A stretch of DNA of 64,000 bases from Patescibacteria group bacterium (GTDB taxonomy: Bacteria; Patescibacteriota; Minisyncoccia; Phycocordibacterales; Phycocordibacteraceae): the NCBI GenBank assembly GCA_040388985.1, contig JAZKAU010000002.1, forward strand, positions 311,642 to 375,641, written 5' to 3'. Positions 23,945-41,954 of the stretch are shown here, one piece after another. The notes beneath the pieces were generated by a model. It saw only the letters and a list, made by a program, of their open reading frames with translations. It did not search any database and had not been told where the DNA came from. A program made the position numbers and the translations under genes. Numbering within the stretch: position 1 is the stretch's first letter; each line of letters opens with the position of its first letter.

Positions 23945-24018
23945 TGCGGGATCATCTAATGGTAGGATCCATGCTTCTGGCGCATGTCATCTAGGTTCGA
24001 GTCCTAGTCCCGCAGCCA
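23945..24018 (+). tRNA. tRNA-Gln (CTG), CCA encoded; integration target
   Basis: acceptor TGCGGGA/TCCCGCA, anticodon stem CATGC/GCATG loop TTCTGGC, T-arm CTAGGTTCGAGTCCTAG, GCCA end. Confidence 0.7.
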
Positions 24019-24098: not shown

Positions 24099-25010
24099 AT
24101 GTCCGCTTCCCATAATCACAATAGTGTTTCCGCAGATTCAGCCTCAATAGGCAAAGCATTTGCGTGGGGAGTCAGTCTCAATACTGTTTTCATTATTGTA
24201 GAAATCAGCTTCGGTCTACTGGCGGGATCTGTAGCTCTGATTGCGGACGCTGCTCATAACTTTAGCGACGTGCTAGGTCTCCTACTTTCGTGGGGTGCAC
24301 TAGCACTTGCTCGGAGAATTCCGAATGGAAAATACACCTACGGATATCGTTCAGCAACCATATTATCTGTCCTTGCCTCAACCGCTTTTTTGTTCGTGGC
24401 AGTGGGCGGGATTGTGTGGTCAGCATTCGGTCGCTTTGCAGAGCCAGCTCCAGTCGAAAGCGGTATTGTCATGATTGTTGCCGCTGTAGGCATTCTTATA
24501 AACGGACTTTCTGCGTGGTTGCTTTCACGGGGGAATAAAGATCTAAACGTGAAAAGTGCTTTCATGCATTTGGCGGCTGATGCGGCGGTATCGGCGGGAG
24601 TTGTCGTAGCAGGTATCGCTATCTACTTCACGGGTTGGAATGTTCTCGACCCTATCGTTAGTATTTTGATTTCAGTAGTCGTTCTATGGGGAGGTTGGGG
24701 TGTTCTGCGTGACGCAGTAAAGCTTGCTCTTAATGCCGTTCCTGATTCTGTACAGCTTCCTGAAGTTCGCACCTATCTTGAAACGCTTCCCGGGGTATCT
24801 CGCATACACGACGTACATGTCTGGCCTATAAGCACCACCGAAATCGCGCTTACAGCGCACCTAGTGCTTCCGCAGGGAGGGTGCAATGATCGTTTCTTGC
24901 ATGAAGTTTGTCATACATTACGCGAGCGTTTTGGTATTGCTCACGCAACCCTACAGACTGAACAAGGAGAAGGGGAGGAATGCGACCTCGCGCCTGAGGA
25001 AGTCGTCTAA
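24099..25010 (+). CDS. czcD: cation diffusion facilitator (CDF) family metal efflux transporter
   Basis: FAWGVSLNTVFIIVEI...LIADAAHNFSDV TM1-2 motif, His-rich N-terminus, C-terminal cytoplasmic domain. Confidence 0.85.
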   Translation: MSASHNHNSVSADSASIGKAFAWGVSLNTVFIIVEISFGLLAGSVALIADAAHNFSDVLGLLLSWGALALARRIPNGKYTYGYRSATILSVLASTAFLFVAVGGIVWSAFGRFAEPAPVESGIVMIVAAVGILINGLSAWLLSRGNKDLNVKSAFMHLAADAAVSAGVVVAGIAIYFTGWNVLDPIVSILISVVVLWGGWGVLRDAVKLALNAVPDSVQLPEVRTYLETLPGVSRIHDVHVWPISTTEIALTAHLVLPQGGCNDRFLHEVCHTLRERFGIAHATLQTEQGEGEECDLAPEEVV

Positions 25011-25153
25011 TATTTAACCCATGTCACCTAAAGCAATTATCTTTATTCTCTTAGCGCTAGTGGTAGCTTTCTTGATTTTTAAGACGGTAACTCATAAGCC
25101 AGGAGACATTTCGTTCCACATATGCACTAGTCAGATAGTGTAAAATAGGAGTC

Positions 25154-25516
25154 ATGCGTGCACCTAATCCTCTAATTACTTACGTATCGCTGGCTGCGTT
25201 TCTTTTTATAGTCATCGTTGGGCCGTGGCTGGTTTTCTCATCGCCGGTTGATATAGATCCCGGATGTCTTTTTACGCATGGTCAGGAATCGTTCTGTTCG
25301 ATGACTTCGCTCGAACATCTAGAGCAGTGGCAATCTGCGTTTATGTTCACGCTCGTGCAAATTCTCTCTTTCGCAGTATGTATCGCAGTTGTAAGTATCT
25401 TCTTCGCTATCATTCAGCGACTCAAACCAGATATCCCTTTCTTCTTTAAGCGATATCAACCCACGCTCTTTCAACAACTTTTCTCACAAGGAATATTGAA
25501 TTCAAAGGCTTACTAA
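25154..25516 (+). CDS. small membrane protein with conserved Cys pair (paralog of 30739..31107)
   Basis: GCLFTHGQESFCSMTSLEHLEQWQSAF... aligns with GCPFMKGETSICPMSVLDHITSWQSTF... of second copy. Confidence 0.45.
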   Translation: MRAPNPLITYVSLAAFLFIVIVGPWLVFSSPVDIDPGCLFTHGQESFCSMTSLEHLEQWQSAFMFTLVQILSFAVCIAVVSIFFAIIQRLKPDIPFFFKRYQPTLFQQLFSQGILNSKAY

Positions 25517-25557
25517 AACGCACATGCGCGTGCTTTTATTCGTTTGTTTGAAATCGT

Positions 25558-25758
25558 ATGCAGAAAAAGTTTATTGTTGCGTTGATAGCAACTTTATTAG
25601 TCGTAGGCTTTATAGGGTATCTCTACATAGGAAGGTCTGCTCCGACAGAAGATGGTGAATCAGTAGCAGTACCTGTAAATGAAACTTTATTTCAGCAACC
25701 TATAGTTTCACCTACGAACGCAGAGCCAGATGACTCACAACATCCATCCAATCTCTAA
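25558..25758 (+). CDS. small secreted/membrane-anchored hypothetical protein
   Basis: 66-aa ORF with N-terminal TM helix. Confidence 0.3.
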   Translation: MQKKFIVALIATLLVVGFIGYLYIGRSAPTEDGESVAVPVNETLFQQPIVSPTNAEPDDSQHPSNL

Positions 25759-25782
25759 ATTACCAACCTATACTTTAATCGT

Positions 25783-26340
25783 ATGTCCTTAGAATTATTC
25801 TCAACAATACTTACGATCGGCAGCATGGCCGTAAGTGCAGTACTGCTTCTGTCACTCGTTTTATTTCAGGTGTCAGGCAAGTTTAGAGAGCACGTATATG
25901 CTCATAGTTATTGGAGATTCTTAATAGCCATGGGTCTGCTATCAGTTGTTTCGATTGCAGGTGCTCTTATATATCAGCTTGTGTACCTAACGCCTGTATG
26001 CGAGTTGTGCTGGTGGCAACGAATATTCTTCTTCCCAATCAGTGTCATCTCGCTTGTTGCATTCTGGCGTAAATCTAAAGAGGCACACATTACTATCGCG
26101 ATTCTTGCCGCGCTAGGGCTTTTTTATGCGAGCTACCACTATTATTACCATTTCCAAGGTCTGGTACTCGGAAACAAACTTGCCCTCCCGTGTTCTTCTG
26201 GAGGCTTGCTTCCGGCCTGCACTGATTCGCCAATCTTAATATTTGGCTTCGTCACTATTCCGTTCATGGGAGTTCTCATGTTCTTGAGCATGCTCATACT
26301 CGCATATTTTGCGCACAAAGTCCTAAAACGTACTTCTTAA
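25783..26340 (+). CDS. disulfide bond formation protein B-like oxidoreductase (BdbC/DsbB family)
   Basis: PVCELCWWQRIFFFP (CxxC...QR) and second Cys pair CSSGGLLPAC; FGFVTIPFMG motif as in Bacillus BdbC. Confidence 0.75.
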   Translation: MSLELFSTILTIGSMAVSAVLLLSLVLFQVSGKFREHVYAHSYWRFLIAMGLLSVVSIAGALIYQLVYLTPVCELCWWQRIFFFPISVISLVAFWRKSKEAHITIAILAALGLFYASYHYYYHFQGLVLGNKLALPCSSGGLLPACTDSPILIFGFVTIPFMGVLMFLSMLILAYFAHKVLKRTS

Positions 26341-26364
26341 ATAGATTGATATACTAAAATTACT

Positions 26365-27003
26365 ATGAAAAATAGAACTATTTGGATCGGCGGAATCCTC
26401 ATTCTTTCCCTTGGAGCCCTTCTATTCCTTTCGACGCTCATACGTCCCGCTAGCCAGCCACCAGTAGGTAATTCAACACTTACGGCGCTTTCTTCAGACG
26501 ATTATATTCGTGGCGCTACTTCAAGCCCGGTAACACTAATCGAATATTTTGATTTTGAATGCGAAGCCTGCGGAGCATATTATCCGCTCGTAAAGCAATT
26601 GGAGAGCGAGTTGGGTGACCGCGTAACTTTTGTCGCGCGCTACTATCCGCTCCCGAACCATAAGAACGGGCTGCAGGCAGCGCTTGCCGCAGAAGCCGCA
26701 GGAAGACAAGGCAAGTTTTGGGAAATGCACGACCTACTCTTCACGCGCCAGAAAGAGTGGGGCGAGAAGCAGGTAGAGACTCCTGAAGTCTTTGCCCAAT
26801 ACGCACAGGAGATCGGGCTGGATGTAGAGCGTTTCAAGACGGATGTGACTTCAGCGGAGGTACGAGCACGCGTGCAGCGAGACCTAGATTCAGGCCGTGC
26901 GCTGGGTGTACAGGGTACGCCATCCTTCTTCTTGAATGGAGAGAAGATCCAGAACCCTCAGTCCTATGAAGCATTCAAGACGCTGCTTGAAAATAAGTTC
27001 TAA
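26365..27003 (+). CDS. DsbA/BdbD-like thioredoxin-fold thiol:disulfide oxidoreductase (secreted)
   Basis: signal anchor, active site FECEACGAYY (CxxC). Confidence 0.75.
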   Translation: MKNRTIWIGGILILSLGALLFLSTLIRPASQPPVGNSTLTALSSDDYIRGATSSPVTLIEYFDFECEACGAYYPLVKQLESELGDRVTFVARYYPLPNHKNGLQAALAAEAAGRQGKFWEMHDLLFTRQKEWGEKQVETPEVFAQYAQEIGLDVERFKTDVTSAEVRARVQRDLDSGRALGVQGTPSFFLNGEKIQNPQSYEAFKTLLENKF

Positions 27004-27006
27004 AAT

Positions 27007-28908
27007 ATGTCTTCTTCCTGCGACAACTGCGAAGTAAAGCCGGTAACGGGTCCTGATTGGAGGAAAATCGGTACCGGATATTCAGGCATTGCTACCATGC
27101 TCGGATTCTTACTCTCATACACCAGTCTTTTCCCTCAAGTACAAATGCCCCTTTTCCTCTCTGCAATAGCAGTAGGAGGCATATTCGTAGTTCGGGGTGC
27201 ACTACGGGGACTTACGCGTCAACGATTTCTTAATATTGATTTCCTCGTCGTTATCGCTACCATCGGTGCGCTGTACCTTGGTGAATTCGGGGAAGCGGCA
27301 GCCATTGTATTTTTCTTCTCGCTAGCGGAAGCATTTGAGGAATATGGAATAGCACGCTCTCGAAAAGCCCTTGAGGCACTCGTGGAAAAAAGTCCAAAGT
27401 TTGCAACACTCTCAGACGGAAGCGAGATGGCGGTTGAAAACATTACCGTTGGAACCGTGATCGCGGTTAAGCCCGGGAAGCTGATACCGCTTGATGGAGA
27501 AGTCGTCAAAGGTCAGTCGGCAGTGAATGAGGCTTCAATCACCGGAGAACCGCTACCAAAGGAAAAGACCGAGGGCGACACGGTGTACGCGGGAACGTTG
27601 AACGAAAATGGATACCTTGAAATTCGTGTGACCAAGGAAAGCAAGAATTCTACAATTGCAAAGATTGTAGGACTGGTAGAAGAGGCGCAGAAGTCAAAAA
27701 CAGGAGCAGAGGAATTCATTGATCGCTTTGCAAAATACTACACACCCGGCATCGCGTTCCTCGCGCTCGCCGTGTTTGCCGTCCCCGTACTTTTCCTTGG
27801 TGGCCAGGCTGCGCTATGGCTTGAACGGGCGATAACACTCCTTGTGATCGCATGCCCATGCGCTCTGGTAATTGCTACACCCGTTACGGTTACAGCAGCT
27901 CTCGGCGGCGCATCGCGCAGAGGAGTGCTTATCCGTGGCGGCCGTTTCCTTGAGATGCTTGGAAAGATCCGCGCCATTTCGTTTGATAAGACCGGCACAC
28001 TCACACAAGGAGAACCTCGTGTCGCCGCAGTCATTGCGTTTAATGGGTTTACAGAGCAGCAGGTTCTTGAAGACGCAGCAGGCATTGAGACGTACTCCTC
28101 GCACCCTCTTTCAAAAGCAATCCTCGCATATGCTACTGAGCGCGGGGTAACACCGCATACGATGGAAAAGTACGAGAACGTGAAAGGGAAGGGCGGACAG
28201 GCGGTATGTCTGGTCTGTGATGATACGGAGCATCTTATAGGGAACCTGAAAATGCTCGACACACACAATATAGATACGTCGAGTATTGTAGAAAAAACAA
28301 AAGAGTATGAAGAACAGGGAATGACCATCGTTCTAGTAACGGAGGGTCATACCCCTATGGGGGCACTCGCTATAACAGATACTATCCGCAGTGAATCTTC
28401 CGCCGTGATAGAGCGTCTGCGTGCAATGAAGGTAACCCCAGTTATGCTTACGGGTGACCATCAGCAGGGCGCGGACTATGTTGCCGTACAGGTAGGTATT
28501 ACCGAAGCAAGAGGCGATCTTCTTCCTGAAGACAAAGTGCGCGAGATGCAATCACTTAAAGCGAAGTATGATTCTGTTGCAATGGTCGGAGATGGGGTAA
28601 ACGATGCGCCCTCGCTCGCCATTGCAGACGTTGGTATTGCTATGGGAGCCCGAGGCTCTGATGTTGCAATCGAGACCGCAGATATTGCTCTTATGAATGA
28701 TTCTCTCTCAACGGTTCCTGACATGGTGCGTCTTGGTAGGCGCACACTCTCAACCGTTAAGGTGAATGTATTTCTCGCAATCGCGTCAAAACTCGCGTTC
28801 ATTATCCTTACTATCTTTGGCATATCCAGTCTTGGAATTGCGATAGCCGCAGATACAGGCATTGCAATTCTTGTCACTTTAAATGGCTTACGGTTATTCA
28901 GAGTTTAA
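27007..28908 (+). CDS. heavy-metal translocating P1B-type ATPase (Cd/Zn/Pb or Cu class)
   Basis: N-terminal CDNC, TM CPC motif (IACPCALVIATP), DKTGTLT, TGDHQ, GDGVNDAP. Confidence 0.9.
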   Translation: MSSSCDNCEVKPVTGPDWRKIGTGYSGIATMLGFLLSYTSLFPQVQMPLFLSAIAVGGIFVVRGALRGLTRQRFLNIDFLVVIATIGALYLGEFGEAAAIVFFFSLAEAFEEYGIARSRKALEALVEKSPKFATLSDGSEMAVENITVGTVIAVKPGKLIPLDGEVVKGQSAVNEASITGEPLPKEKTEGDTVYAGTLNENGYLEIRVTKESKNSTIAKIVGLVEEAQKSKTGAEEFIDRFAKYYTPGIAFLALAVFAVPVLFLGGQAALWLERAITLLVIACPCALVIATPVTVTAALGGASRRGVLIRGGRFLEMLGKIRAISFDKTGTLTQGEPRVAAVIAFNGFTEQQVLEDAAGIETYSSHPLSKAILAYATERGVTPHTMEKYENVKGKGGQAVCLVCDDTEHLIGNLKMLDTHNIDTSSIVEKTKEYEEQGMTIVLVTEGHTPMGALAITDTIRSESSAVIERLRAMKVTPVMLTGDHQQGADYVAVQVGITEARGDLLPEDKVREMQSLKAKYDSVAMVGDGVNDAPSLAIADVGIAMGARGSDVAIETADIALMNDSLSTVPDMVRLGRRTLSTVKVNVFLAIASKLAFIILTIFGISSLGIAIAADTGIAILVTLNGLRLFRV

Positions 28909-29067
28909 GCGGTTACTTAAGCCATACTTTAGTCCACACTTCTTCATAAAAGCATCATTGACCACGATTTTACCCTCGTTATACTAGTAGGACTGGTTAG
29001 ATACGGATGTACTCAAGAAAGCCTATTACAGGCTTTTTGTATTATGAAGAAACGCTGAATTTCCTTT

Positions 29068-30165
29068 TTGTTTCCTATTTTACCTTCAAAGTTTTTCTCC
29101 CGTTCTACACGTGCGTCGAACAGGGATACATATAAGCGGTTTGGTTTAGTAGCTGCGATTCCCGCTCTACTTCTTTTTGTCCATATCATCGCACCTAATG
29201 CGATAGACGGTTTCTTTCCGTTCCCTCACAGCGCACATGCGCAGAGCGATAGTATCGGCGGCATCATTCATGACCCAAGCATAGGTTTGCTTAAAGGCGT
29301 TCGTGACTCAAGTGTTACTGACGACAATGAGATGGAAGTCTCAGGAGGAATGGCGCTCATGTCTCATTCTGATCTTTCAGAAGGAAGTGAGGGAGGCGTA
29401 AGCACGCAATCAGCGAAGCCGAAGAAATCAGGCATTTCTCTCTACACTGTCAAAGAAGGAGATTCGCTTTCAGAAATAGCTGAAGAGCATGGAGTTTCAA
29501 GTAATACTATTCTCTGGGCAAACGACATTCGTGATGCAAGTACCATCCGTACTGGAGACGAACTTATTATCCTTCCTGTCTCAGGCGTACAGCATAAGGT
29601 AGCTTCTGGCGAGACTCTACAGACTATAGCGAAGAAGTATGGATCGGATGCATCTGACATCGCACTCTATAACGGCATTGATGAATCAAGTGGTCTTAAG
29701 CAGGGAGCAGAGATAGTGGTTCCCGGCGGAGCGTTCCCTTCAGCTACGAAGAAAGTCGCAAGTACGGCAAACACAAAGAAAGCTGCGGTATCAACAGCAA
29801 AGTCGAGTAGCTCGTCTACTGGCGGGAAGTTTGGGAACCCGCTCCCAGGCAGAGCGATCACACAGGCGAATCACGGATATAATGCAGTAGATATAGATGG
29901 CGAAACAGGAGACCCGATTTACGCTTCGGCTGGCGGTAAGGTCATTATTGCTAAGGGTGGAGGAGGCTACAACGGTGGCTACGGAAATTACATCGTAATT
30001 GAGCATGGGGGAGGAGTTCAGACACTTTACGCTCACATGTCGAGCCTTGCGGTGTCAGGTGGCACGGTTGAAAAGGGTGAGATTATCGGGTATGTAGGTA
30101 GTACCGGAAAATCAACGGGTTCGCATCTGCACTTTGAAGTTCGCGGAGCAACTAATCCGCTTTAA
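29068..30165 (+). CDS. LysM-domain M23 family metallopeptidase (peptidoglycan hydrolase)
   Basis: two LysM repeats (YTVKEGDSLSEIA..., HKVASGETLQTIA...), C-terminal M23 HxxxD/HxH motifs (AVDIDG, YAHMS, GSHLHFEV). Confidence 0.85.
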   Translation: MFPILPSKFFSRSTRASNRDTYKRFGLVAAIPALLLFVHIIAPNAIDGFFPFPHSAHAQSDSIGGIIHDPSIGLLKGVRDSSVTDDNEMEVSGGMALMSHSDLSEGSEGGVSTQSAKPKKSGISLYTVKEGDSLSEIAEEHGVSSNTILWANDIRDASTIRTGDELIILPVSGVQHKVASGETLQTIAKKYGSDASDIALYNGIDESSGLKQGAEIVVPGGAFPSATKKVASTANTKKAAVSTAKSSSSSTGGKFGNPLPGRAITQANHGYNAVDIDGETGDPIYASAGGKVIIAKGGGGYNGGYGNYIVIEHGGGVQTLYAHMSSLAVSGGTVEKGEIIGYVGSTGKSTGSHLHFEVRGATNPL

Positions 30166-30204
30166 GCGAGATTCTCTTGTCTTCCATAGCAGGATAGTAG
30201 TTTC

Positions 30205-30657
30205 CTAGAGCCTCTTGAGAATGCTACTCATCTGATCAATCTCCAGTTGCTGGCTCGCAATGATGTTCTGACAAAGCTGCTTTATCTCTGGATCAGTGAT
30301 TTTCGCTTGCTCACACATCAGTATGGCTCCTGAGTGGTGAGGAATCATAGATTGAAGGAATCCCTTGTCTCCCACAAAAGTCTGATATCGAATCGCAAGA
30401 AATGAAAGTACGAGAACAACGAACCCGATACCAATTATGATCTTGTTCAATTTCTTGTCTTTGTACATCATGCCCATGAGGAGCATCTCAAGAATGAGCA
30501 TAGGCGCAGTCATCATGATTCCCATATAGAGGAAATTGATATTTGGAACCGCGTTCGCAAATACATTTACCATTGCAAACATGAGGACGAACATGGCGAC
30601 TACATGGAGTCCGACCATAAGAGCTAGTTTGCTATAGGAGGCATCTTTCATATTCAT
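30205..30657 (-). CDS. DUF305 family membrane protein (metal-resistance associated)
   Basis: MIPHHSGAILMCEQA matches DUF305 HHxGA-x-M motif; N-terminal TM helices. Confidence 0.6.
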   Translation of the reverse strand: MNMKDASYSKLALMVGLHVVAMFVLMFAMVNVFANAVPNINFLYMGIMMTAPMLILEMLLMGMMYKDKKLNKIIIGIGFVVLVLSFLAIRYQTFVGDKGFLQSMIPHHSGAILMCEQAKITDPEIKQLCQNIIASQQLEIDQMSSILKRL

Positions 30658-30738
30658 AGAAATATTAGCTTATGCGAACTGATAATACGTATAGATATTG
30701 TACCTTTTATCCCTTCTTAATAGGTATAGAATAGAGGT

Positions 30739-31107
30739 ATGACTGCGCAGATAAAGAAACTCCTATCGTGGTCAGCGCTGGCTTTGATAGTAGTGGTTCC
30801 TCTCCTGATGCTTTTCACCATGGCGATGCCCATGGATCATAGTACGGGTGGCTGTCCCTTTATGAAGGGTGAGACTTCAATCTGCCCGATGTCGGTTTTG
30901 GATCACATAACGAGCTGGCAGAGCACATTTACCATTACTCTCGTCGAGATACTCACGTTTGCCCTGCCAATCTTCGCGCTCGCATTGATTTGGCTCATTC
31001 TTCCAAAACCTGAACATCCACCGGGGTACCGAAGACGTTCCTATCCAGTACCGCCTTTACTACAAGAACTCTTCTCAAGCGGTCTCCTCAATCCGAGAGT
31101 TCCATAG
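30739..31107 (+). CDS. small membrane protein with conserved Cys pair (paralog of 25154..25516)
   Basis: see paralog alignment; C-terminal QELFSSGLLNPRVP vs QQLFSQGILNSKAY. Confidence 0.45.
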   Translation: MTAQIKKLLSWSALALIVVVPLLMLFTMAMPMDHSTGGCPFMKGETSICPMSVLDHITSWQSTFTITLVEILTFALPIFALALIWLILPKPEHPPGYRRRSYPVPPLLQELFSSGLLNPRVP

Positions 31108-31146
31108 AAACCCTTTAGTTATCTTTATTTCACTTAACTAAACTCT

Positions 31147-31548
31147 ATGGAAAAGAATGTAATTATTATAGGACTCGTTGCTCTTATTATTGGCGCTGGA
31201 GGGGGTTATGCACTTGCTATGAACAAGGCCCCGGAACCTACAGCAACTACCGGAGGTCATATGATGTCTAACGGTCAGATGATGGGAGGCTCTATGTCAG
31301 GGAATAGTATGCAGGGTGAGATGGACTCGATGATGGCTGGGCTTCAAGGAAAGACTGGAGACGCGTTCGACCAGGCCTTTTTGAGCGAGATGATCATGCA
31401 CCACCAAGGAGCCGTACAAATGGCTGAAGCAGCCCTTCAGAACGCAAAGCATCAGGAGATAAAGGATCTTGCAAAGAACATCATCTCTGCACAGAACACC
31501 GAGATCAAAGAGATGCAAGACTGGCAAAAGTCTTGGTACGGGAACTAA
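31147..31548 (+). CDS. DUF305 family protein with Met-rich (Cu-binding-like) region
   Basis: MIMHHQGAVQMA DUF305 motif; MMSNGQMMGGSMSGNSMQGEMDSMM Met-rich stretch; signal anchor. Confidence 0.65.
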   Translation: MEKNVIIIGLVALIIGAGGGYALAMNKAPEPTATTGGHMMSNGQMMGGSMSGNSMQGEMDSMMAGLQGKTGDAFDQAFLSEMIMHHQGAVQMAEAALQNAKHQEIKDLAKNIISAQNTEIKEMQDWQKSWYGN

Positions 31549-32322
31549 GTGGAGACTGTATGCGTTATGAACCAGACTACTAAACGAACAGCGATCCTCT
31601 ACCGAATGGTGCTACCAGACCATACCTGTCCGTATGGCCTGAAGGCTCGATGGCTTCTAAGGAAGCGCGGGTATGAAATCGATGATCAAATACTTCACAC
31701 CCGTCATGAAGTGGATGCGTTCAAAGCAGAATACTCTGTAGAATCGACACCTCAAATCTTCATTAACGACAAAAGAATTCGTGGGTATGATGACTTGCGT
31801 AAATCGTTAGGCATGAAGGTGCGCGATCCTAAGGGTACGACGTATACGCCCGTTGTTGTAGTGTTTGTTACCACAGCTCTCATGGCTTTGGCAGTGAGCT
31901 ACGCAACATACGGAGACCTGCTTACACTGCAAACGGTTCAGTGGTTCATCGCGCTCTCAATGATGGTACTCGGCATGCTCAAGCTCCAAGACATTGAAAG
32001 CTTCTCCAGTATGTTCCTGAACTATGATCTGCTTGCTCGTCGCTGGGTTCGGTATGGATATATATACCCATATGCAGAACTTGGAGCGGGAGCACTCATG
32101 GTGGCAGGCGCATTGTCTTGGCTATCAATTCCAGTTGCCCTGCTCATTGGAATCATTGGTGCAGTATCTGTATTCAAGGCCGTCTACATCGACAAGCGAG
32201 AACTCAAATGTGCCTGTGTCGGTGGAAACAGTAATGTTCCGCTCGGCTTCCTATCTCTCACTGAGAATCTCATGATGATAGCGATGGCTCTATGGATGCT
32301 GATAATGATTGGAATGCATTAG
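31549..32322 (+). CDS. glutaredoxin-like domain fused to multi-TM (MauE/DoxX-like) membrane domain
   Basis: CPYG active-site motif in N-terminal ~80 aa; 4-5 C-terminal TM helices with Cys pair CACVGG; start could be internal ATG (MNQTTKR). Confidence 0.55.
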   Translation: METVCVMNQTTKRTAILYRMVLPDHTCPYGLKARWLLRKRGYEIDDQILHTRHEVDAFKAEYSVESTPQIFINDKRIRGYDDLRKSLGMKVRDPKGTTYTPVVVVFVTTALMALAVSYATYGDLLTLQTVQWFIALSMMVLGMLKLQDIESFSSMFLNYDLLARRWVRYGYIYPYAELGAGALMVAGALSWLSIPVALLIGIIGAVSVFKAVYIDKRELKCACVGGNSNVPLGFLSLTENLMMIAMALWMLIMIGMH

Positions 32323-32384: not shown

Positions 32385-33707
32385 CTAATTAATCGCCAGA
32401 GTAATTTTCTTGTCATTAATAAGAAGTTTACCCTTTAAACATCCAAGTAATTCCCGCTTTTCTATGTCCGCTCCTTCTCTTAAGAGGTATTTAGCGTAAT
32501 TTCGTATATCTACATCTACTATCTCAATTTTGGTCTTTGTGCCTAGAATAGCTTGCTGGAACTTCTTAAACCTCTCAACCTCAGCTTTTATCTTTTCCTT
32601 AATACCAATCTCGTCGATATCAATGGTATCCATAAGAGCGATGAATTGTTCTATAAGATCCGTCTCATTTATATAGCCTGATTTACAATTCACATCTTTG
32701 CCTTTGCCGCAGCCGTAATAGACGTGGCGGTGAACATTTCCGTTCTTTTGCTTCTTAAATTTCTCGTCAGCCGAGATACTTGAACCGCATAGGCCACACT
32801 CCATAAGACGAGTGAAGGCAAATTCTTTAGTCTCGGAACGGATCACTTGGCTCTTTACTTGTTCCTGAACGAGGTCAAACAGCTCTTTAGAAATAAGGGG
32901 TTCGTGCTTTCCTTGATACCAACGGCCTGAATTCTTCGGGTATTCAAATACTCCGTAGTAGAAGGGATTTTGGAGAAGAATATAAATATTACTCAAACTC
33001 AGGTTCTTGTTCCCGGCGGCTGTCTTAAAATTAAGCTCGAATTTGAGCCAGTTATATACCTTACGTCCGCTCCATTTTTCATATGCTACTTTCTCGAACA
33101 TCTTCCTAATTACCATTGCTCTATCTGGGTCGAGAATGCTCTGACACTTCCTATCCAGTCGCTGTTCTTTCAGATAGCCGGTAGGGGCACGTCCCGGCAG
33201 TAGTCCCATTTCTACTCTCGTCTTTAAACCTCTCTTTACATTAATACTCTTGTTGTCGTTCTCGAGCTTTGCTTGAGAACACAGAATCATCAGGAGGAAC
33301 TTCTCGTTAGGGGAGTTCCTGAAGTGTTGTCCGTAAGTACGAATTTCAAGGAGTAGCTTCTGATCCATCAGATCTACGAGTGTTCCTAAGTCTCCAGCAT
33401 TTCTACTCAAACGGTCAGGTGCCCAAGTTAGTACGGCGTTAAAGCGTCCGCGTCGTATATCTTCGAGTAGTTCTTGATATACAGGTCGTTGTCCTGAATC
33501 CTTTGCTGAATGCGACTCTCTCCGAATATCTACTATCTCTAGATTCTCCCGCTCAGCGATTTGAAGCATTTCCTTAATCTGCGAATCTATGGAAAGAGCT
33601 TGCTTCTCATCGGACTCGGTAGATTTTCGGGCGTATAAGCAGTATCTAATTTTCTCTTCTATAATGACGGGTGATAATCCTATCTGTGAGGTTTCTAAAG
33701 TTTGCAT
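32385..33707 (-). CDS. large serine recombinase (resolvase/invertase N-domain + recombinase domain + zinc ribbon)
   Basis: YARKSTESDEKQ catalytic Ser region, DRLSRN, recombinase domain, CGLCGSS...YYGCGKG zinc ribbon, C-terminal coiled coil. Confidence 0.85.
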   Translation of the reverse strand: MQTLETSQIGLSPVIIEEKIRYCLYARKSTESDEKQALSIDSQIKEMLQIAERENLEIVDIRRESHSAKDSGQRPVYQELLEDIRRGRFNAVLTWAPDRLSRNAGDLGTLVDLMDQKLLLEIRTYGQHFRNSPNEKFLLMILCSQAKLENDNKSINVKRGLKTRVEMGLLPGRAPTGYLKEQRLDRKCQSILDPDRAMVIRKMFEKVAYEKWSGRKVYNWLKFELNFKTAAGNKNLSLSNIYILLQNPFYYGVFEYPKNSGRWYQGKHEPLISKELFDLVQEQVKSQVIRSETKEFAFTRLMECGLCGSSISADEKFKKQKNGNVHRHVYYGCGKGKDVNCKSGYINETDLIEQFIALMDTIDIDEIGIKEKIKAEVERFKKFQQAILGTKTKIEIVDVDIRNYAKYLLREGADIEKRELLGCLKGKLLINDKKITLAIN

Positions 33708-34014: not shown

Positions 34015-34326
34015 CTATTAATTGATGCCAGACTGGTGGCTGGTGCATAGTCTATGCAGAACTAGTCTTTCGTCGCATGGTCGCGAAGGCCTTAGCAAAG
34101 GGTAGGAACTGCGATAATATGAAGAAGTAGTACAGGGCTATGTATTACCTCAATATGGCCTAAACCGAGCAATTGCCCGGCATGGCCGAATAACCGCGAC
34201 CAGCATAGAAAACCCGTCATCAGGGCGCTGGTCGCGTTACCAGGGGAAACTCTGGTATGTCCTTCGGGACTCCTGGTGGCGGGTTTTGTGCTACCCACCA
34301 GAATTACAAATCGCGACCAGCAACAT

Positions 34327-34806
34327 ATGAATGACTCAACCGAGAGTGAGAAATCTGCTCTACAAAAACCTATTAGCGAGCTATGGAAAACCAGTCCTGT
34401 AACTCGAGTTACCACTGTTGTAGTGGTGCTTATACTGATCCTTATAGTTTGGGGTTCTGGAACACCAGCTCCAACATATCAATATCAGTATGTTCCAGAT
34501 ACGAGTTCTCAGCCTGCTGTAAGTACAACGGGAACGTATCAAGAAGTGCTTACGTTCTCTGGCAATGGACCTAAGCGGTCAGAGCCATTTACCATTATAG
34601 GTAGCCGATTCAAGATTACTTATGATTGTAAGGCTATGTATTGCGGCGCGTTCGTATTCAACACAAGCGATCAGATGCCAAGAGCGCTTATGAATAGCCC
34701 TGAGGCAGTAAGCGATGAAACTGTGTTCTACGGTAGCGGCCAATACTACATTGATACCAATATAGTGAATGGAAGTTATACGATGACGGTATACGACTAT
34801 AAATAG
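34327..34806 (+). CDS. membrane-anchored extracellular hypothetical protein
   Basis: single TM (VTTVVVVLILILIVW) then Thr/Tyr-rich beta region; start trimmed to MNDSTESEK. Confidence 0.4.
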   Translation: MNDSTESEKSALQKPISELWKTSPVTRVTTVVVVLILILIVWGSGTPAPTYQYQYVPDTSSQPAVSTTGTYQEVLTFSGNGPKRSEPFTIIGSRFKITYDCKAMYCGAFVFNTSDQMPRALMNSPEAVSDETVFYGSGQYYIDTNIVNGSYTMTVYDYK

Positions 34807-34818: not shown

Positions 34819-36270
34819 TTAAAAGAATCGGGGCACAGCTGGAGGATTGTTGACTGTGTGTAGTACAAGCATCGAAAAGGCATCGGCTAGGTCATCATGC
34901 TTTTCGACACCGAAGTGTACCAGCTGTTGAATTAGCTGTTCCGCGCCTTCTCTTGGGAAAAGGATTGTGCCATTCTTAATTAGATTTGCGGTTAACATGA
35001 GTCGACTGCGCTTGTCTGACCCTGGGTGAATAGTCTCTACTTGCCAAATACCTTCGGTAATAAGCTGCTCGGCCATAGCCCTCTGATACCCAACATCTTC
35101 GATAAGAAATGTGGCTTGTTGTCTATCCTCGTCCATATATGTCTGGTGAAGGATCTTGCAGGTATTTACTGTTTCGGGAAAATCCATTCTCCTGTTTACG
35201 ATCTTAGGCAGGATATATATGCAGTAGTCATTCTCTCGTTCATACAATAGCGCAGGAACCATGGCGGTGTAGTCCGCCGTATCCCTCTTGGATATCGCAA
35301 GATCTACTCCAATATGGAGCTCTGTATGCGTTGTGTAATATTCGTCCAACTGTGTTGATGGAGGAATCGTATCGTAGTACTGAATCCAGGCGCGATCGAT
35401 AACTTGATCTTCGGCAGGAACGATATTTAAGAGATATTCTCTCTGCCAAGCATATTCGTTAGAAGCTTTACGGCGTTCCTCCTCAACATCCTCCATGGTT
35501 GGATATTTGCCTGGCCATAGCACCTGACTTCTGTCGATAAGTGGATAAGACTTAAAAACACCCACCATGCTCTCTGTTTCCACATCTTCTTTAAGTCTCA
35601 TCATGAGTGAATCCTCGTGAAGGAGGTTTCCGATAATGATCATGCGCGTAGTACGGTCTCCGGTCGGTATAACTTCACCCGTTAGCCATTCATAGGTCTT
35701 ATTACGTCCCTCGCGTGTTTTCGTCGAAGCGATATCTTCAAGGTCGTCTCCAATAATAAGATCTGGTCTGTGTTGGTTGTGACGCAAGCCTCGGATGCTT
35801 TGTTCGGAAGAGACGGTTGTGATACGGGCATTGGTTTCAGCAAATACGAGTGAGGAAGCTCCCCATTCGTTATGCTCTTCTTGAAACGGACCAAGATCGT
35901 TCTTAAGGAGTATATTTCCCTCAAGCTCGCGTCGTAGGTTCATCATATGTTGCTTTGCTTGCGCCTGGGTCTGCGCGAGTATTAGCACGAACTTCTTCTG
36001 TGGCTGTCCAAGGATTGCCCAAAGCGGATATGACATAGTGAAGATCGTAGACTTTGCCGACCCACGAAATGCGACTATGAAGAGGTTTCTGATGTTTTCT
36101 TGTTCAGACAGATGAATCAGTTCTCGTTGGAAGGGAGCGGTAGGGTACTTTACATAGTGTGCGAAGTAGAAGTGGAAGAACATGAAGTGGCTTTGCCGAG
36201 TGATTGCTGAGCGAACATTACGGTCACTAAACATTTTCTCGGCAAGTTCTGGTGGCAGATGCTCATTCAT
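34819..36270 (-). CDS. phage terminase large subunit
   Basis: Walker A-like VAFRGSAKST, Walker B LIIGDDLED, C-terminal RNaseH-like nuclease acidic residues; size 483 aa. Confidence 0.8.
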   Translation of the reverse strand: MNEHLPPELAEKMFSDRNVRSAITRQSHFMFFHFYFAHYVKYPTAPFQRELIHLSEQENIRNLFIVAFRGSAKSTIFTMSYPLWAILGQPQKKFVLILAQTQAQAKQHMMNLRRELEGNILLKNDLGPFQEEHNEWGASSLVFAETNARITTVSSEQSIRGLRHNQHRPDLIIGDDLEDIASTKTREGRNKTYEWLTGEVIPTGDRTTRMIIIGNLLHEDSLMMRLKEDVETESMVGVFKSYPLIDRSQVLWPGKYPTMEDVEEERRKASNEYAWQREYLLNIVPAEDQVIDRAWIQYYDTIPPSTQLDEYYTTHTELHIGVDLAISKRDTADYTAMVPALLYERENDYCIYILPKIVNRRMDFPETVNTCKILHQTYMDEDRQQATFLIEDVGYQRAMAEQLITEGIWQVETIHPGSDKRSRLMLTANLIKNGTILFPREGAEQLIQQLVHFGVEKHDDLADAFSMLVLHTVNNPPAVPRFF

Positions 36271-36682
36271 CTTGGTCTTGGATAGGGCTCTCTAAGTTTG
36301 CTGGTTCAGGAAGAGAGAAGGAGGCAAGTCGAAGTGCTTCGCGTACCACTTCTTCTTGTTCAGGAGTAAGTTCTTCCTTTGGTTTCGTAGTCGTCACCTC
36401 CAGACGATCGCGATACTTGGGACTGCGCTTACGGAGCCAGAAGGATATGGCGTTCCAGTTCTTGTCGCGGATCATACTAATGAGCTGGCTTTCGCTCATG
36501 TCGTTGATCAGTTCCTCGCCTTCGCCTAACGCTATGTCCATCGATTTACGGAACTCAGGATCTTCGTTTTTCCAGCGATAGACGCTATTGCGCGATACTC
36601 CAACTTTTTCGCAGGCGACCTGGACGATAGGGACTTTCCGGAGATGATCCAGGAACGCGTCTTTGACCTTATTCTTTTTCAT
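36263..36682 (-). CDS. terminase small subunit-like HTH protein
   Basis: N-terminal HTH (VQVACEKVGVSRNSVYRWKNED), located directly upstream of terminase large subunit. Confidence 0.5.
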   Translation of the reverse strand: MKKNKVKDAFLDHLRKVPIVQVACEKVGVSRNSVYRWKNEDPEFRKSMDIALGEGEELINDMSESQLISMIRDKNWNAISFWLRKRSPKYRDRLEVTTTKPKEELTPEQEEVVREALRLASFSLPEPANLESPIQDQDE

Positions 36683-37958
36683 GCGCGTTTCCGGTTACTT
36701 TTGCTTTGTTTCCCGTAAGCTTTTCGTACCGCTTAATAGCGAGATCGCAGAAGGCAGGCTCAAGTTCTACGGCGTAGACGCGGCGCTTCAACTGCTCGGC
36801 GGCAATCATCGTACTTCCTGAGCCAGAGAAGCTATCGAGAATAATCTCGCCTGGCTTCGTACAGCGACGAATAGCCTTCTCATGAAGCTTAGGGGGCTTC
36901 GAGGTTGCGTGTTCATAATCTTTCCCAGAGAGTCGCTTTACGAGCCACACATCGAGATGATCGAGCGTCTCCTCAATGAGGTTGTTTCCAGTCGTAATCT
37001 CCTTATTGAGTACTTCGTTCAGGTTCTGAATGCTCTTGGCTATATACGGTTTACCTCGCAGTCCATAAACGCAGGGTTCGTAGCATTTATTGAACGCGAC
37101 AGACGGCACCGGATTCTGCGAGTTCTTGAGCCATAGACACACACGCTTATTCGCTATACCGAGTTCGCGGTACAGCTCCTGCATGAGACCGATATAGATC
37201 TGATCGCACCAGTAGAAGACATGCGTATCCGGCTTCGCTACCGAAAGGGCAGCGATCATCGTCTTTGTTATGAATTCCTTATACTCGCTGTCAGTGCGAG
37301 TATCGAGGACGTTTCCTCCATAGTTCTGCTTGCCCCCAATCCCCCCGTTGTAGTCGATATTGATGTTGTATGGTGGATCGCTATAGATCATTGACGCGCG
37401 TTCCTCTCCGAAGAGGTGACCGAGTACCCTTGGGTCAGTTGAACTCCCGCAAATAAGACGATGGCCACCAAGCTGAATGAGGTCTCCAATCTTAGTTTTT
37501 GGCTCCTTGATCTGCTTCAGCTCCTTCTCTTCGTCGAATTCGTCATTCTCTGTCTCCAAGTTCTCCGTCCAGACATTCGAGAGGTCGATGTCGCTAAAGC
37601 CAACATCAGACAGGAAGTCCATCTCGAAGAACTTCAATTTCTCGAAGTCCCATTCTCCGGTGTTGCGGTTAAGGCGAAGGTTCAGTTCCTGTTCCTTCCT
37701 CAGGCTTGGAATCTGGACGTACACGACTGGTACAGTCTTGTGTCCCAATTCCTTAGCGGCACGAAGGCGCATGTGACCACCAATAACGATGTTCTTGCGC
37801 TTCGGTGCACCATTCACGATTACAGGATCTACCAGCTCGAAGCGAGAGATACTCTCTTTAAGCTGGGTAAGCGCCTCCTTGGAGATCTTGCGAGGGTTGT
37901 ACTCGGCAGGCTTTAAGTCTCCGACCGGTACGTACACAATATTTAGTTCTTTGTTCAT
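36669..37958 (-). CDS. ParB-like nuclease domain fused to DNA N6-adenine/N4-cytosine methyltransferase
   Basis: ParB N-domain (IGGHMRLRAAKELG), MTase motif IV DPPY (IYSDPPYNI) and motif I (LDSFSGSGST). Confidence 0.85.
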   Translation of the reverse strand: MNKELNIVYVPVGDLKPAEYNPRKISKEALTQLKESISRFELVDPVIVNGAPKRKNIVIGGHMRLRAAKELGHKTVPVVYVQIPSLRKEQELNLRLNRNTGEWDFEKLKFFEMDFLSDVGFSDIDLSNVWTENLETENDEFDEEKELKQIKEPKTKIGDLIQLGGHRLICGSSTDPRVLGHLFGEERASMIYSDPPYNINIDYNGGIGGKQNYGGNVLDTRTDSEYKEFITKTMIAALSVAKPDTHVFYWCDQIYIGLMQELYRELGIANKRVCLWLKNSQNPVPSVAFNKCYEPCVYGLRGKPYIAKSIQNLNEVLNKEITTGNNLIEETLDHLDVWLVKRLSGKDYEHATSKPPKLHEKAIRRCTKPGEIILDSFSGSGSTMIAAEQLKRRVYAVELEPAFCDLAIKRYEKLTGNKAKVTGNAHEKE

Positions 37959-38124
37959 ATTCCTTTGAAACAGTTATGTTCAATAAGGATGTATGGAAAT
38001 AGAAAAGGCCTATTCCACACACGAAAAGAGAAGAGGTTCAATGCCTCAACTCATTTCTTGCGCGGAATAGGCATGGCCGGGAGGCGATACGCTACTCTAC
38101 TTTTTACTACGCTATATCACTATT

Positions 38125-38532
38125 CTATTCCTCTCGCTTTTTCTTCGCAAGGCCTCGAAGCACTCGCTTACCATTTTTACTGTTCAGGAACTCCACAGTA
38201 TCCTTTCCCGGTCCCACTGGAACGCCTGCACGGTCAAAAGAGAGAAGGACTTTATATCCTTTAGACTCTTGATCCCGTACATAATTCACAAAATCTGGAT
38301 CCTCCTTAAGACGATTGATTGCGTACGCGCGTGAATCCATTAGTGCGAGCAAGTCAATTGGCCCGTAAATGCGACCTGGTTGCCCTGCATCAACTGCTTT
38401 TCGTATTTTATTTCCGACTGAAGGAGTGGCAGTCTTTGCCGCAGTATGGAACGCTCCGTCAGTGATATGAATCGTGACATATTTCCGTCCCTTTTTAAGG
38501 ACGGCGGGATTTAGATCAAGCCGATATTCCAT
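38125..38532 (-). CDS. hypothetical protein (135 aa after start trimming), divergent from CD-NTase gene
   Basis: ORF 38125..38742 trimmed to internal ATG (MEYRLDLNPAV...) to avoid overlap with + strand gene; no motif recognised. Confidence 0.35.
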   Translation of the reverse strand: MEYRLDLNPAVLKKGRKYVTIHITDGAFHTAAKTATPSVGNKIRKAVDAGQPGRIYGPIDLLALMDSRAYAINRLKEDPDFVNYVRDQESKGYKVLLSFDRAGVPVGPGKDTVEFLNSKNGKRVLRGLAKKKREE

Positions 38533-38595
38533 ACCAGTATTATACTCTTCTCCTATTTGCTCGCTATATAACCTGGGCTGTAATAAAATAGCGTT

Positions 38596-39489
38596 ATGTC
38601 TTGGGAAGATACTTTTATTACCTGGTCCGCACCACCCAGCCTCACTGAACGTGAGAAGATGGAAAATGCTGAAACGGCAATACGTAAAGCCGTTGCCGCA
38701 AACACTCGTTTGAGTCAAATGGATGTGTCCATCATCCCGCAAGGTTCTTATCGTTCAAAGACAAATGTAAGATTGGACAGTGACGTCGATATTGCAGTAT
38801 GTCTAAATTCGACGTTCTTCACGCAATATCCTGCTGGTAAAGTACACGAAGATTTTGGAAATAGTAGCTCGGAAGAAATTACTTTTCCTGAATTTCGCGG
38901 TCTAGTACAAGTCGCCCTAGATGACTATTTTGGCTCTGCACAAGTAACGCCAGGAAATAAGGCCTTTGATATCCATTCAAATAATTATCGAGTTGATGCT
39001 GATGTGGTAGCTACATTCGCACATCGCCATTACTTCGAGAACGGTCTATTTATAGAACCAGCAGGAGTAGCATTTCTTACGCGCGACACTTCAAAAAGAA
39101 TTGAGAATTGGCCACATCAAGCCTACGAAAACGGAAAAGATAAACATGATAGAACAGGTCGTCGGCACCGGAAAATGGTTCGCATCCTAAAACGTCTTCG
39201 CAATAAGATGCAGGCAGAAGGTTATGAAGAAGCAAACGACATCTCCTCGTATCTCATTGAAAGCATGGTCTGGAATGCCGCCGACCAGTCTTTTAATCAC
39301 ACAACTTATACTGAAGATGTTCGAGCTGTATTAGCATACTGCTTCAATGAGACCCTGCCTGCGGGAAGCCACGGATCTCTTGTTGAATCGAATGATATTA
39401 AGTACCTCTTCCATGTAACTCAGCCGTGGACGCGCGAACAGGCTCACAAATTCTTTTCTGCCGCATGGAATTATTTAGGCTTCCAATAA
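38596..39489 (+). CDS. cGAS/DncV-like nucleotidyltransferase (CD-NTase, SMODS-type minimal NTase)
   Basis: Pol-beta NTase motif QGSYRSKTNVRLDSDVDIAV (GS...DxD) and downstream DADV; N-terminus WSAPPSLTEREKMENAE resembles clade-E CD-NTases. Confidence 0.75.
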   Translation: MSWEDTFITWSAPPSLTEREKMENAETAIRKAVAANTRLSQMDVSIIPQGSYRSKTNVRLDSDVDIAVCLNSTFFTQYPAGKVHEDFGNSSSEEITFPEFRGLVQVALDDYFGSAQVTPGNKAFDIHSNNYRVDADVVATFAHRHYFENGLFIEPAGVAFLTRDTSKRIENWPHQAYENGKDKHDRTGRRHRKMVRILKRLRNKMQAEGYEEANDISSYLIESMVWNAADQSFNHTTYTEDVRAVLAYCFNETLPAGSHGSLVESNDIKYLFHVTQPWTREQAHKFFSAAWNYLGFQ

Positions 39490-39491
39490 GT

Positions 39492-40118
39492 ATGGAAAAG
39501 GTAAACGGGAAGGTACAGATGTATGTTCAAATAATTACTTTTCTTTTTGTTTGGATTCTCGTACTTATATTTACGCAACCAAACCAGACTTGGGATTTAA
39601 TAAATGCACTCAAAGAAGTACCAACGGCCATATCTATATATGCTGTCCTAAGTCTTTTATTTGTTAAATGGCTTTGGCGTATTCCAATCCTTCATCCGTG
39701 GTTAGTGAAAATACCTAATCTTAACGGTACATGGCGAGGTGTTTTAAAAAGCGATTGGGTCAATCCTGTAACAGGAAAGAATATTGAGCCAATACCTGTT
39801 CTTCTTACGATTAAGCAAGATTTCTCTAATCTACATTGCGTATTGATGACAAAGGAGTCAACAAGTTACAGTGTTGTCGCAGATATTAATTTTGGACTTG
39901 GGGGAGATACGTCCTGTCTTAGCTACACTTATACAAATCGATCCAAAGCATCAATCCGAGATAGAAGTCCAATACATGACGGCGCCGCAATTCTTAAGAT
40001 TATTAAGAATCCACAGATTTCCTTAGAGGGAGAATACTGGACAAGCAGAAAAACGAAAGGAGATATCAATGTCATTCTAGAATCAAGAAAGATAGTAGAA
40101 AGTTACATAGAAGTGTAA
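39492..40118 (+). CDS. 2-TM membrane effector with C-terminal beta-rich domain (Cap15-like CBASS effector candidate)
   Basis: two TM helices (VQIITFLFVWILVLIF; AISIYAVLSLLFVKWLW) then ~140-aa beta-rich domain; ATG 3 nt after CD-NTase stop. Confidence 0.5.
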   Translation: MEKVNGKVQMYVQIITFLFVWILVLIFTQPNQTWDLINALKEVPTAISIYAVLSLLFVKWLWRIPILHPWLVKIPNLNGTWRGVLKSDWVNPVTGKNIEPIPVLLTIKQDFSNLHCVLMTKESTSYSVVADINFGLGGDTSCLSYTYTNRSKASIRDRSPIHDGAAILKIIKNPQISLEGEYWTSRKTKGDINVILESRKIVESYIEV

Positions 40119-40150
40119 CTTTCTACGTGACACTCAAAACCTCATTCCTG

Positions 40151-40266
40151 TGTCACTTTTGTCACTTTCCTAGGTGCACGAGACGCGTCGTTTTGGATTC
40201 TGAAAACTCACCAAACGGACTAAGCAGGGCTTGGTTCTAGACGGTTCGAACTCGAGACGGCCAGCA
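40151..40266 (+). repeat. ~115-nt structured repeat, copy B (tandem GTCACTTT half-sites, GACGCGTC palindrome, GAGACGGCCAGCA end)
   Basis: ~85% identical to 41839-41954; partial motif also at 24041-24052. Confidence 0.7.
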
Positions 40267-40421
40267 ACGTATGGAAGCCGCCCGGGAGGGCGGTTTTCAC
40301 GTTGCTGCGGGAAGCGAGTGTGGGGCACTCGCGTCTAGGACTCGAAGCTGTTACGAGTATTTCTCAGGAGTCCTCCGAACTGAGAAATCCGCAACGGATA
40401 CTGCTCCGTAGGAGAGAGGCC

Positions 40422-40448
40422 AGTCCCGCAGCCAACTCGTGCTAGGTT
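40422..40448 (+). repeat. right copy of 27-bp direct repeat (att-like)
   Basis: identical to 24006-24032. Confidence 0.8.
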
Positions 40449-40508
40449 CGGACGCACGAGATGCGTAGTCTCGACTTAAGACACACAACTTTACTGTCGT
40501 GGACGTAC

Positions 40509-41750: not shown

Positions 41751-41838
41751 AAGAGTCGGTACTTATGGAATACTACTAAAGTTATAATACGTCAAGTTTT
41801 AGCCTTGCTATGGCTCCAACATCCTTCCACGCAAGGAC

Positions 41839-41954
41839 TGTCACTTTTGTCACTTTTTGAAGCGCACGAGACGCGTCGTTTTTGACTCTGAAAATTCACC
41901 AAACGGACTAAGCGGGGCTTAGCCGACTACGGTTCTAACACGAGACGGCCAGCA
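41839..41954 (+). repeat. ~115-nt structured repeat, copy C
   Basis: aligned to 40151-40266; lacks the following tRNA-3' repeat. Confidence 0.7.

Follow-up and report, generated by a model that had tools for sequence, protein, structure and literature searches.

A predicted CdnE-Cap15 type I CBASS operon on a tRNA-Gln island of a Patescibacteria genome

Operons that pair a clade-E cGAS/DncV-like nucleotidyltransferase (CD-NTase), CdnE, with the membrane effector Cap15 have been studied as type I antiphage signaling systems based on cyclic oligonucleotides (CBASS), and the closest described examples are those of LpCdnE (PDB 7X4F), ClCdnE and EfCdnE (PMC10442399). The same two-gene architecture is found at positions 38596 to 40118 of a 64,000-nt stretch of contig JAZKAU010000002.1 from a Patescibacteria group bacterium (assembly GCA_040388985.1); this whole stretch is called the window hereafter. 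The window cyclase shares with LpCdnE the catalytic residues, the lid-1 Asn and the lid-3 (R/Q)xW motif, which suggests the same cyclic di-pyrimidine chemistry. The differences from the three described operons are Ala176 at lid-2 instead of Asn or His, a Patescibacteria metagenome-assembled genome (MAG) as host, a product that is predicted, and a location on a tRNA-Gln island together with phage packaging genes.

Three other described systems are informative for comparison. The Ssc-CBASS of Staphylococcus schleiferi (CdnE03 and Cap15, 'type I-B') protects staphylococci by permeabilizing membranes (PMC10686824); it is the same clade-E cyclase and Cap15 two-gene operon as in the window, and its membrane-disrupting abortive infection has been shown experimentally. 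Ssc-CdnE03 makes cGAMP and is triggered by a structured RNA of the phage, a transcript of terminase genes (PMC10686824), whereas the specificity residues of the window enzyme point to pyrimidines. The Panoptes system OptS-OptE is a two-gene operon as well, with an effector of the same S-2TM-beta family, but its synthase is an mCpol domain and its logic is inverse, while the synthase in the window is a CD-NTase, which places the window pair outside the definition of Panoptes (PMC12657218). Finally, the Cap15 of Yersinia aleksiciae (YaCap15, PDB 7N34/7N35) has the same beta-barrel receptor fold behind two transmembrane (TM) helices.

Islands carrying defense genes are also known among phage satellites, both in satellites of the Staphylococcus aureus pathogenicity island (SaPI) type and of the PICI (phage-inducible chromosomal island) type, which have their own TerS, and in P4-type hotspots. 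Like phage satellites, the element that carries the window operon is compact and tRNA-adjacent, with a recombinase, packaging genes without virion genes, and interchangeable defense cargo; most of its relatives have a LexA/CI-like repressor. Unlike phage satellites, it has a large serine recombinase, TerL besides TerS, a ParB-methylase and a LOOT RNA, it has no recognizable replication module, and it is restricted to bacteria of the candidate phyla radiation (CPR). We know of no helper phage for this family of CPR elements.

The cdnE-cap15 operon

We read the pair as a functional-looking type I CBASS carried as accessory cargo on a tRNA-Gln island with a CPR-wide backbone, and we give this reading, including the mechanism proposed below, a probability of about 0.88. 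The genes concerned are the following.

38596..39489, + strand: cdnE, clade-E CD-NTase of 297 aa (NCBI MES2225763.1), from PADLOC cyclase profiles and solved CdnE structures
39492..40118, + strand: cap15, effector of 208 aa with two TM helices and a beta-barrel (NCBI MES2225764.1), from Pfam, PADLOC, an AlphaFold2 (AF2) model and Foldseek
38125..38532, - strand: orphan of 135 aa, first gene of the packaging operon, with 73 homologues and an AF2 model

These three open reading frames (ORFs), including the divergent one upstream, are real, as the first-pass annotation had it, and the E-values of the PADLOC profiles (2.8e-114 for the cyclase model PDLC00801, which covers residues 2-296 of CdnE, and 2.4e-72 for the 2TM effector model on Cap15) exclude a chance pattern. 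Both operon proteins are identical to their NCBI records, which carry the product names 'nucleotidyltransferase' (MES2225763.1) and 'hypothetical protein' (MES2225764.1).

Besides PDLC00801, three PADLOC cyclase models match CdnE below 1e-49, one of them at 5.2e-80. The best match among PDB sequences is LpCdnE (7X4F, 1.4e-65), followed by ClCdnE, EfCdnE, RmCdnE (6E0M) and EmCdnE (6E0K); 7X4A and 7X4C are also among the solved CdnE structures that match. Identity to Legionella LpCdnE is 40% over the full length (BLASTP), and the precomputed Pfam assignment is PF26305 (CD_NTase_C). On these cyclase models, PF26305 and the solved CdnE structures, rather than on the Pfam SMODS model PF18144, gene 1 is assigned to the clade-E CD-NTases, in agreement with what had been predicted. 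The motifs named in the first-pass annotation are present as well, namely WSAPPSLTEREKMENAE at residues 10-26, QGSY at 49-52, DSDVD at 61-65 and VDADV at 133-137, except that QGSY and DSDVD lie 8 residues apart and not 9 as claimed. In the alignment with LpCdnE, its catalytic residues (Asp65/Asp67 in that enzyme) are matched by G50-S51, D63/D65 and D134/D136, the GS/DxD/D positions being invariant or almost so across 42 homologues, and the enzyme keeps N171 at lid-1 and Q276-P-W278 at lid-3.

Gene 2 had been proposed to encode a Cap15-like effector with two TM helices and a beta domain, and this was borne out by both Pfam models, PF18153 (Cap15_CD_rec, 70.1 bits with a cut-off of 31.2) and PF23471 (Cap15_TM, 30 bits with a cut-off of 28.2). 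As a phmmer search of the PDB sequences with Cap15 gave no match, its structure was predicted with AF2 from a 47-sequence alignment and compared with the PDB by Foldseek. In the model (predicted local distance difference test, pLDDT, 85.7), residues 6-28 and 36-59 form the two predicted TM helices, and eight strands make up the beta domain that comes after them (79-198). YaCap15 (7N34/7N35) came out on top (E 3.8e-6, target-normalized TM score 0.80-0.86, root mean square deviation 2.2-3.5 Å), so the structure prediction that had been called for returned the expected two TM helices and barrel. By family models and predicted fold, gene 2 is Cap15 and its C-terminal domain is the cyclic-dinucleotide receptor barrel PF18153; this is the very domain that the first-pass annotation had failed to recognize.

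The cdnE stop codon TAA (39487-39489) is followed by 'GT' and by the cap15 ATG at 39492, leaving a spacer of 2 nt. Among relatives of CdnE, which were scanned in one genome per species, a cap15 homologue lies directly downstream in 77/80 genome loci, and the pair is present in all six viral-contig loci (6/6). The neighbors from 32.4 to 44.5 kb contain no Cap2, Cap3, HORMA, TRIP13, CapW or CapH/P in Pfam and PADLOC scans. Without Cap2, Cap3, HORMA or further accessory genes, the pair is classified, by gene content, as a two-gene type I CBASS made up of CdnE and Cap15, which PMC10686824 calls type I-B; type I is what had been anticipated.

In the mechanism that we infer, phage infection would activate CdnE, which would then make a cyclic dinucleotide, a cyclic di-pyrimidine such as c-di-UMP being suggested by the specificity residues. 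Cap15, which crosses the membrane twice, would bind the nucleotide in its cytoplasmic beta-barrel, oligomerize and breach the cell membrane, and the infected cell would die before phage is released (abortive infection). For CdnEs that have Cap15 as their partner, it has been shown that uracil is chosen at the acceptor site through the lid-1 Asn, that the (R/Q)xW motif at the C-terminus limits the donor site to pyrimidines, and that a Trp-to-Ala change in the lid-3 motif rewires the donor specificity of EfCdnE (PMC10442399). Since N171 and Q276-P-W278 are kept, a cyclic di-pyrimidine such as c-di-UMP is the predicted product of the window enzyme, a prediction that draws on these three residues; at lid-2 the enzyme has Ala176. 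A subclade of CPR cyclases (L008-L012, L014, L015, L039 and L086; related loci are designated by L numbers throughout) has QPC for QPW at lid-3 (276-278 in the window enzyme) and ENCK for ENGK (179-181 in the window enzyme). As the Trp-to-Ala change rewires EfCdnE, these QPC enzymes may make a different, purine-containing signal.

Relatives in CPR bacteria and the tRNA-Gln island

The CdnE and Cap15 records derive from a 525-kb contig of the 'Patescibacteria group bacterium' MAG. A CBASS in such a host had been thought unusual, and this did not turn out to be the case, as for both genes most of the nearest relatives belong to Patescibacteria (Magasanik-, Campbell-, Parcu-, Staskawicz-, Zambryskii- and Saccharibacteria). 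For CdnE, the closest relatives (56-69% identity) are almost all from the CPR, including Magasanikbacteria, Parcubacteria, Paceibacterota, Saccharibacteria, Peribacteria, Zambryskiibacteriota and Staskawiczbacteria as well as the complete Campbellbacteria genome CP011215.1, and the CPR sequences cluster together in a neighbor-joining tree. Because these nearest relatives come nearly all from CPR lineages, CBASS is, by this distribution, established in CPR bacteria rather than exceptional. The existence of a CPR-rich CdnE-Cap15 subclade agrees with the high density of defense systems reported for CPR genomes (PMC12259885), and it implies that abortive-infection immunity would be maintained in bacteria with genomes of ~0.5-1 Mb. 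Literature searches yielded nothing specific on the context of the LOOT motif, on CBASS or on serine-recombinase elements in Patescibacteria. The CBASS itself is conceptually ordinary, an under-annotated CdnE-Cap15 operon, and its value lies in its genomic context.

The operon is located at the right end of a low-GC island of 16.4 kb (~24.03-40.45 kb); GC content drops from ~0.55 to ~0.46 across 24-46 kb. The other features of the island and, as the last entry, one just beyond its right boundary are listed below from left to right.

23945..24018, + strand: tRNA-Gln(CTG), left boundary of the island, found by ARAGORN and Rfam; the GC drop begins here
24099..32322, + strand: metal and redox cargo identified with Pfam, comprising a CDF transporter, DsbB, a DsbA-like protein and a P-type ATPase, and further a LysM-M23 peptidase, two DUF305 proteins and a MauE/glutaredoxin protein
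32385..33707, - strand: large serine recombinase (Pfam Resolvase, Recombinase and Zn_ribbon_recom; PHROG 95 integrase, 2e-62)
34157..34271, + strand: LOOT RNA (Rfam RF03000, 69.5 bits with a gathering score of 46.4)
34276..34806, + strand: variable 'moron' ORF after LOOT, 176 aa with one hydrophobic helix and no family match
34819..36270, - strand: terminase large subunit TerL (PHROG 38, 3.8e-80; weak Pfam Terminase_6C)
36263..36682, - strand: TerS-like helix-turn-helix protein (PHROG 4044, 7.7e-13, and other TerS PHROGs)
36669..37958, - strand: fusion of ParB-N and an N6_N4 DNA methyltransferase (Pfam; PHROG 498, 5e-92; PADLOC type II MTase)
37959..38124, - strand: conserved intergenic element with a hairpin of ~25 bp (nhmmer in L010, L005, L098 and L094; RNAalifold)
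40151..40266, no strand assigned: conserved right-end motif of 116 nt with the blocks TGTCACTTTTGTCAC / CGAGACGCGTC / GGTTC.A.C.CGAGACGGCCAGCA
40422..40448, + strand: 27-nt perfect copy of the tRNA-Gln 3' end and trailing bases, right boundary of the island (direct repeat; similarity extends to 40466)
41839..41954, no strand assigned: second copy of the right-end motif, a direct repeat of 40151-40266 with 84% identity

The first copy of the repeat (24006-24032) consists of the last 12 nt of tRNA-Gln and the next 15 nt, and the second copy starts 304 nt past the cap15 stop codon; this perfect 27-nt repeat delimits the island. The serine recombinase is the sole recombinase found on it and has 54-81% identity in related elements. 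From these boundaries, the predicted empty attB junction reads ...GGTTCGAGTCCTAGTCCCGCAGCCAACTCGTGCTAGGTT/CGGACGCACGAGATGCG and the predicted circular attP junction ...GAGAGGCCAGTCCCGCAGCCAACTCGTGCTAGGTT/ATCGCGCTCGAGACGCGTCG; the 27-mer att core gave 0 matches in a metagenome scan. Both termini of Logan contig L001 (window 32345-42641) were also considered as limits of the element and were rejected, as the left one lies in a terminator hairpin, the right one in a kinase gene, and neither falls on a repeat.

The backbone of the element consists of the serine recombinase, the LOOT RNA, TerL, TerS, the ParB-methylase and the 135-aa orphan. With its gene order kept, its ORFs intact and 45-80% protein identity, this backbone is found again in L004-L006, L008-L011, L014, L015 and L039 and in 8 IMG/VR contigs (L092-L099); the CPR loci that have it, from genomes or metagenomes, number at least 10. 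TerL is missing from 5/12 related loci compared. On the recombinase side, the element borders on a tRNA gene in L039 (Gln), in L015 and L093 (Glu) and in L095 (Asp); L013, which keeps only the methylase of the backbone, has a tRNA-Glu on that side as well. The features of a satellite that can be seen here are a recombinase with recognizable boundaries and TerS plus TerL without virion genes. The description of the island as a satellite-like, mobile element of an uncultivated bacterium that is small and streamlined, already proposed at first sight, is thus well supported by comparison, through the recurrence of the backbone and the island boundaries; mobility itself is putative.

What lies between the backbone and the CBASS varies: in most relatives a LexA-like S24 repressor separates the orphan from cdnE, and some have a DUF2188/PDC-S16 gene there; the window copy has neither. 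Relatives without CBASS carry instead type III restriction-modification, a type IIG enzyme with an HKD/Snf2 helicase, or a defense-type reverse transcriptase, and in L010 and L086 a type I restriction subunit flanks the recombinase together with CBASS. Copper and metal genes occur in or beside L004 (1-2601), L005 (84-1835 and 11284-15249) and L039 (1313-5302), the recurring types being P-type ATPases, DsbD_2, cupredoxin, CsoR-like and CDF proteins; given this repetition, metal resistance seems to travel with the defense cargo.

The LOOT RNA is found in L005 (3325-3444), L006 (6220-6346), L009 (6066-6193), L010 (4528-4651), L011 (3806-3930) and L014 (517-629), in each case with a variable + strand ORF no more than ~65 nt downstream. 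In relatives this slot holds an Ltp-like lipoprotein, DUF4352, T5orf172 or small membrane proteins. LOOT is a constant part of the element family, and in L011 it occupies, together with its ORF, another position within the element. It therefore appears to lead a 'moron' cassette. An orphan sRNA motif in Rfam, it now has a reproducible genomic neighborhood.

The upstream orphan gene has no Pfam, PHROG or PADLOC match, and its AF2 model (pLDDT 87.3) has no PDB fold match at E<1. Among its 73 homologues, of which 41 were aligned with a mean column identity of 56%, all source names given are CPR lineages. By tblastn it is present in only 2/80 genome CdnE loci (L010 is one), with L005 as a third case from a separate look-up; it also occurs in the CBASS-less loci L094 and L098. 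A role as CBASS accessory or regulator was rejected on account of its orientation, which is that of the ParB-methylase/TerS/TerL operon, and of its presence in CBASS-less elements. Judged by its distribution, the orphan is part of the element backbone and not of the CBASS. The first-pass annotation had drawn on it, and on the effector, to suggest that the signaling or effector chemistry might be novel; with the catalytic and lid residues conserved and the orphan assigned to the backbone, this chemistry does not look novel.

Alternative readings

Several observations weigh against the reading that we favor. In the Pfam-A scan, SMODS (PF18144) does not match CdnE at E<=0.1, so that of the proposal of a SMODS-type CD-NTase the CD-NTase/CBASS cyclase profiles were recovered but not SMODS; PF18144 is a precomputed match on some CdnE homologues only and is faint in the single locus with its strength stated, and the model is simply weak or insensitive for this subclade. 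Lid-2 is Ala where characterized enzymes have Asn or His, the link to YaCap15 comes from fold comparison only (25-26% identity), and in the 63 nt preceding cdnE no sigma-70-like promoter was found on the + strand. At the level of the element, a direct repeat of 27 nt is unusual for a serine integrase, the window copy has no LexA-like repressor, and neither an empty site nor a circular form of the island was found.

For the two genes themselves, one could suppose that gene 1 is a generic Pol-beta nucleotidyltransferase, such as an MNT-type antitoxin partner, next to an unrelated membrane protein, since its only direct Pfam-A matches, NTP_transf_2 (18.7 bits, cut-off 21) and Mab-21_C, are sub-threshold. 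This supposition is refuted by the matches of gene 1, over its full length, to cyclase profiles of CBASS and to CdnE enzymes of solved structure, by the Cap15 fold and by the conserved pairing with a Cap15 homologue (77/80 genome loci), there being no HEPN or toxin partner, and its probability is negligible. The direction of signaling could also be inverse, as in Panoptes: a constitutive nucleotide would keep the Cap15-family effector inactive until phage sponges or nucleases free its toxicity. OptE does belong to the same S-2TM-beta family as Cap15 with opposite signaling (PMC12657218), and the state that the ligand stabilizes is not readable from sequence alone. Yet Panoptes synthases are mCpol (Cas10-palm) domains, which makes such a logic very improbable for a CD-NTase 40% identical to LpCdnE; moreover, the effector matches the Pfam Cap15 models, and characterized CdnE-Cap15 pairs signal forward.

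The nature of the element is less settled than that of the CBASS. The CBASS and the backbone might belong to a decaying prophage remnant, immobile and perhaps non-functional, which we consider rather unlikely but a live rival for the window copy. It would account for the absence of capsid, portal and tail genes, none of which was matched within 24-46 kb by family scans including Pfam and PHROG, for the loss of TerL from some related loci, for the missing repressor, for the lack of any recognized replication gene on the island, and for the failure to find an empty site or circle. Against a remnant stand a truncated gene order that recurs, its ORFs intact and 45-80% identical at the protein level, across CPR lineages and 8 IMG/VR contigs, cargo that varies at fixed slots, insertion beside different tRNA genes (Gln, Glu, Asp), and a motif that matches at both ends of one element and differs between elements; in addition, the catalytic residues of CdnE are all intact. 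A more specific proposal, which we put forward tentatively and would not yet bet on, is that the CBASS is one swappable cargo of an undescribed, CPR-specific family of minimalist satellite-like elements that would shuttle defense and metal resistance among ultra-small, episymbiotic bacteria via helper-phage capsids. Its members would integrate at tRNA genes by a serine recombinase and carry TerS with or without TerL, the ParB-methylase, and LOOT heading a variable slot. If this were true, the orphan LOOT RNA would gain its first genomic context. The recurring tRNA-adjacent serine-recombinase/terminase element suggests a concrete vehicle for the exchange of defense genes among CPR bacteria.

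Non-coding elements and other features of the window

The intergenic region 37959-38124 is better conserved than the flanking genes in L005, L010, L094 and L098, and its hairpin has 5 compensatory pairs (RNAalifold), making it a candidate pac site, structured RNA or regulatory RNA of the packaging operon.

The right-end motif occurs at the Cap15-distal end in L005 (9534-9667), L009 (13189-13321), L010 (12696-12828) and L012 (3296-3544), and also in L014 (7658-7791), L039 (13338-13468) and L094 (56-190). It is conserved as the blocks TGTCACTTTTGTCAC, CGAGACGCGTC and GGTTCTAGCTCGAGACGGCCAGCA without covariation. A structured RNA was dropped as an explanation, with zero compensatory pairs in RNAalifold, and because covariation is lacking the motif probably represents DNA sites for recombination, packaging or a repressor. 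The CGAGACGCGTC motif is also present after the tRNA-Gln (24041-24051), while L039 has AGTTGCGT at both ends instead. The second copy of the right-end motif suggests the remnant of a tandem element from 40449 to ~41954, which holds an 88-aa ORF, a TrpR-like protein and a 157-aa ORF.

Between the motif and the right boundary, 40267-40421 is non-coding, rich in GC and contains two strong hairpins. The folding z-score of 40150-40500 is -3.7 relative to shuffles; the region is also found in L012, where the changes appear compensatory, and nothing in Rfam matches it. A permissive Rfam search of 40100-40560 returned only a miRNA-like match, which was dismissed as chance. The stretch 40267-40421 could be a structured RNA of a new kind or part of the att region.

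Another tRNA-Gln(CTG), in Magasanikbacteria PCWN01000007.1 (L002/L007), has an unrelated CBASS island directly downstream, with the order LexA-like repressor, 515-aa methylase, ResIII helicase/restriction protein and cdnE-cap15. The tRNA-Gln gene may be a general hotspot for CPR defense islands.

Farther along the low-GC region, a cyclodipeptide synthase homologue (44517-45401, + strand; Pfam CDPS, 2.5e-14) adjoins a 281-aa protein without family match (43643-44488, - strand) and a DUF5946 protein (45964-46464, + strand). At the other side of the island, the ORF for release factor 2 (RF2, prfB; 16877-17815, + strand) matches positions 111-351 only of the RF2 model. The prfB gene usually contains a programmed +1 frameshift, and an N-terminal part in another frame would fit this partial match.

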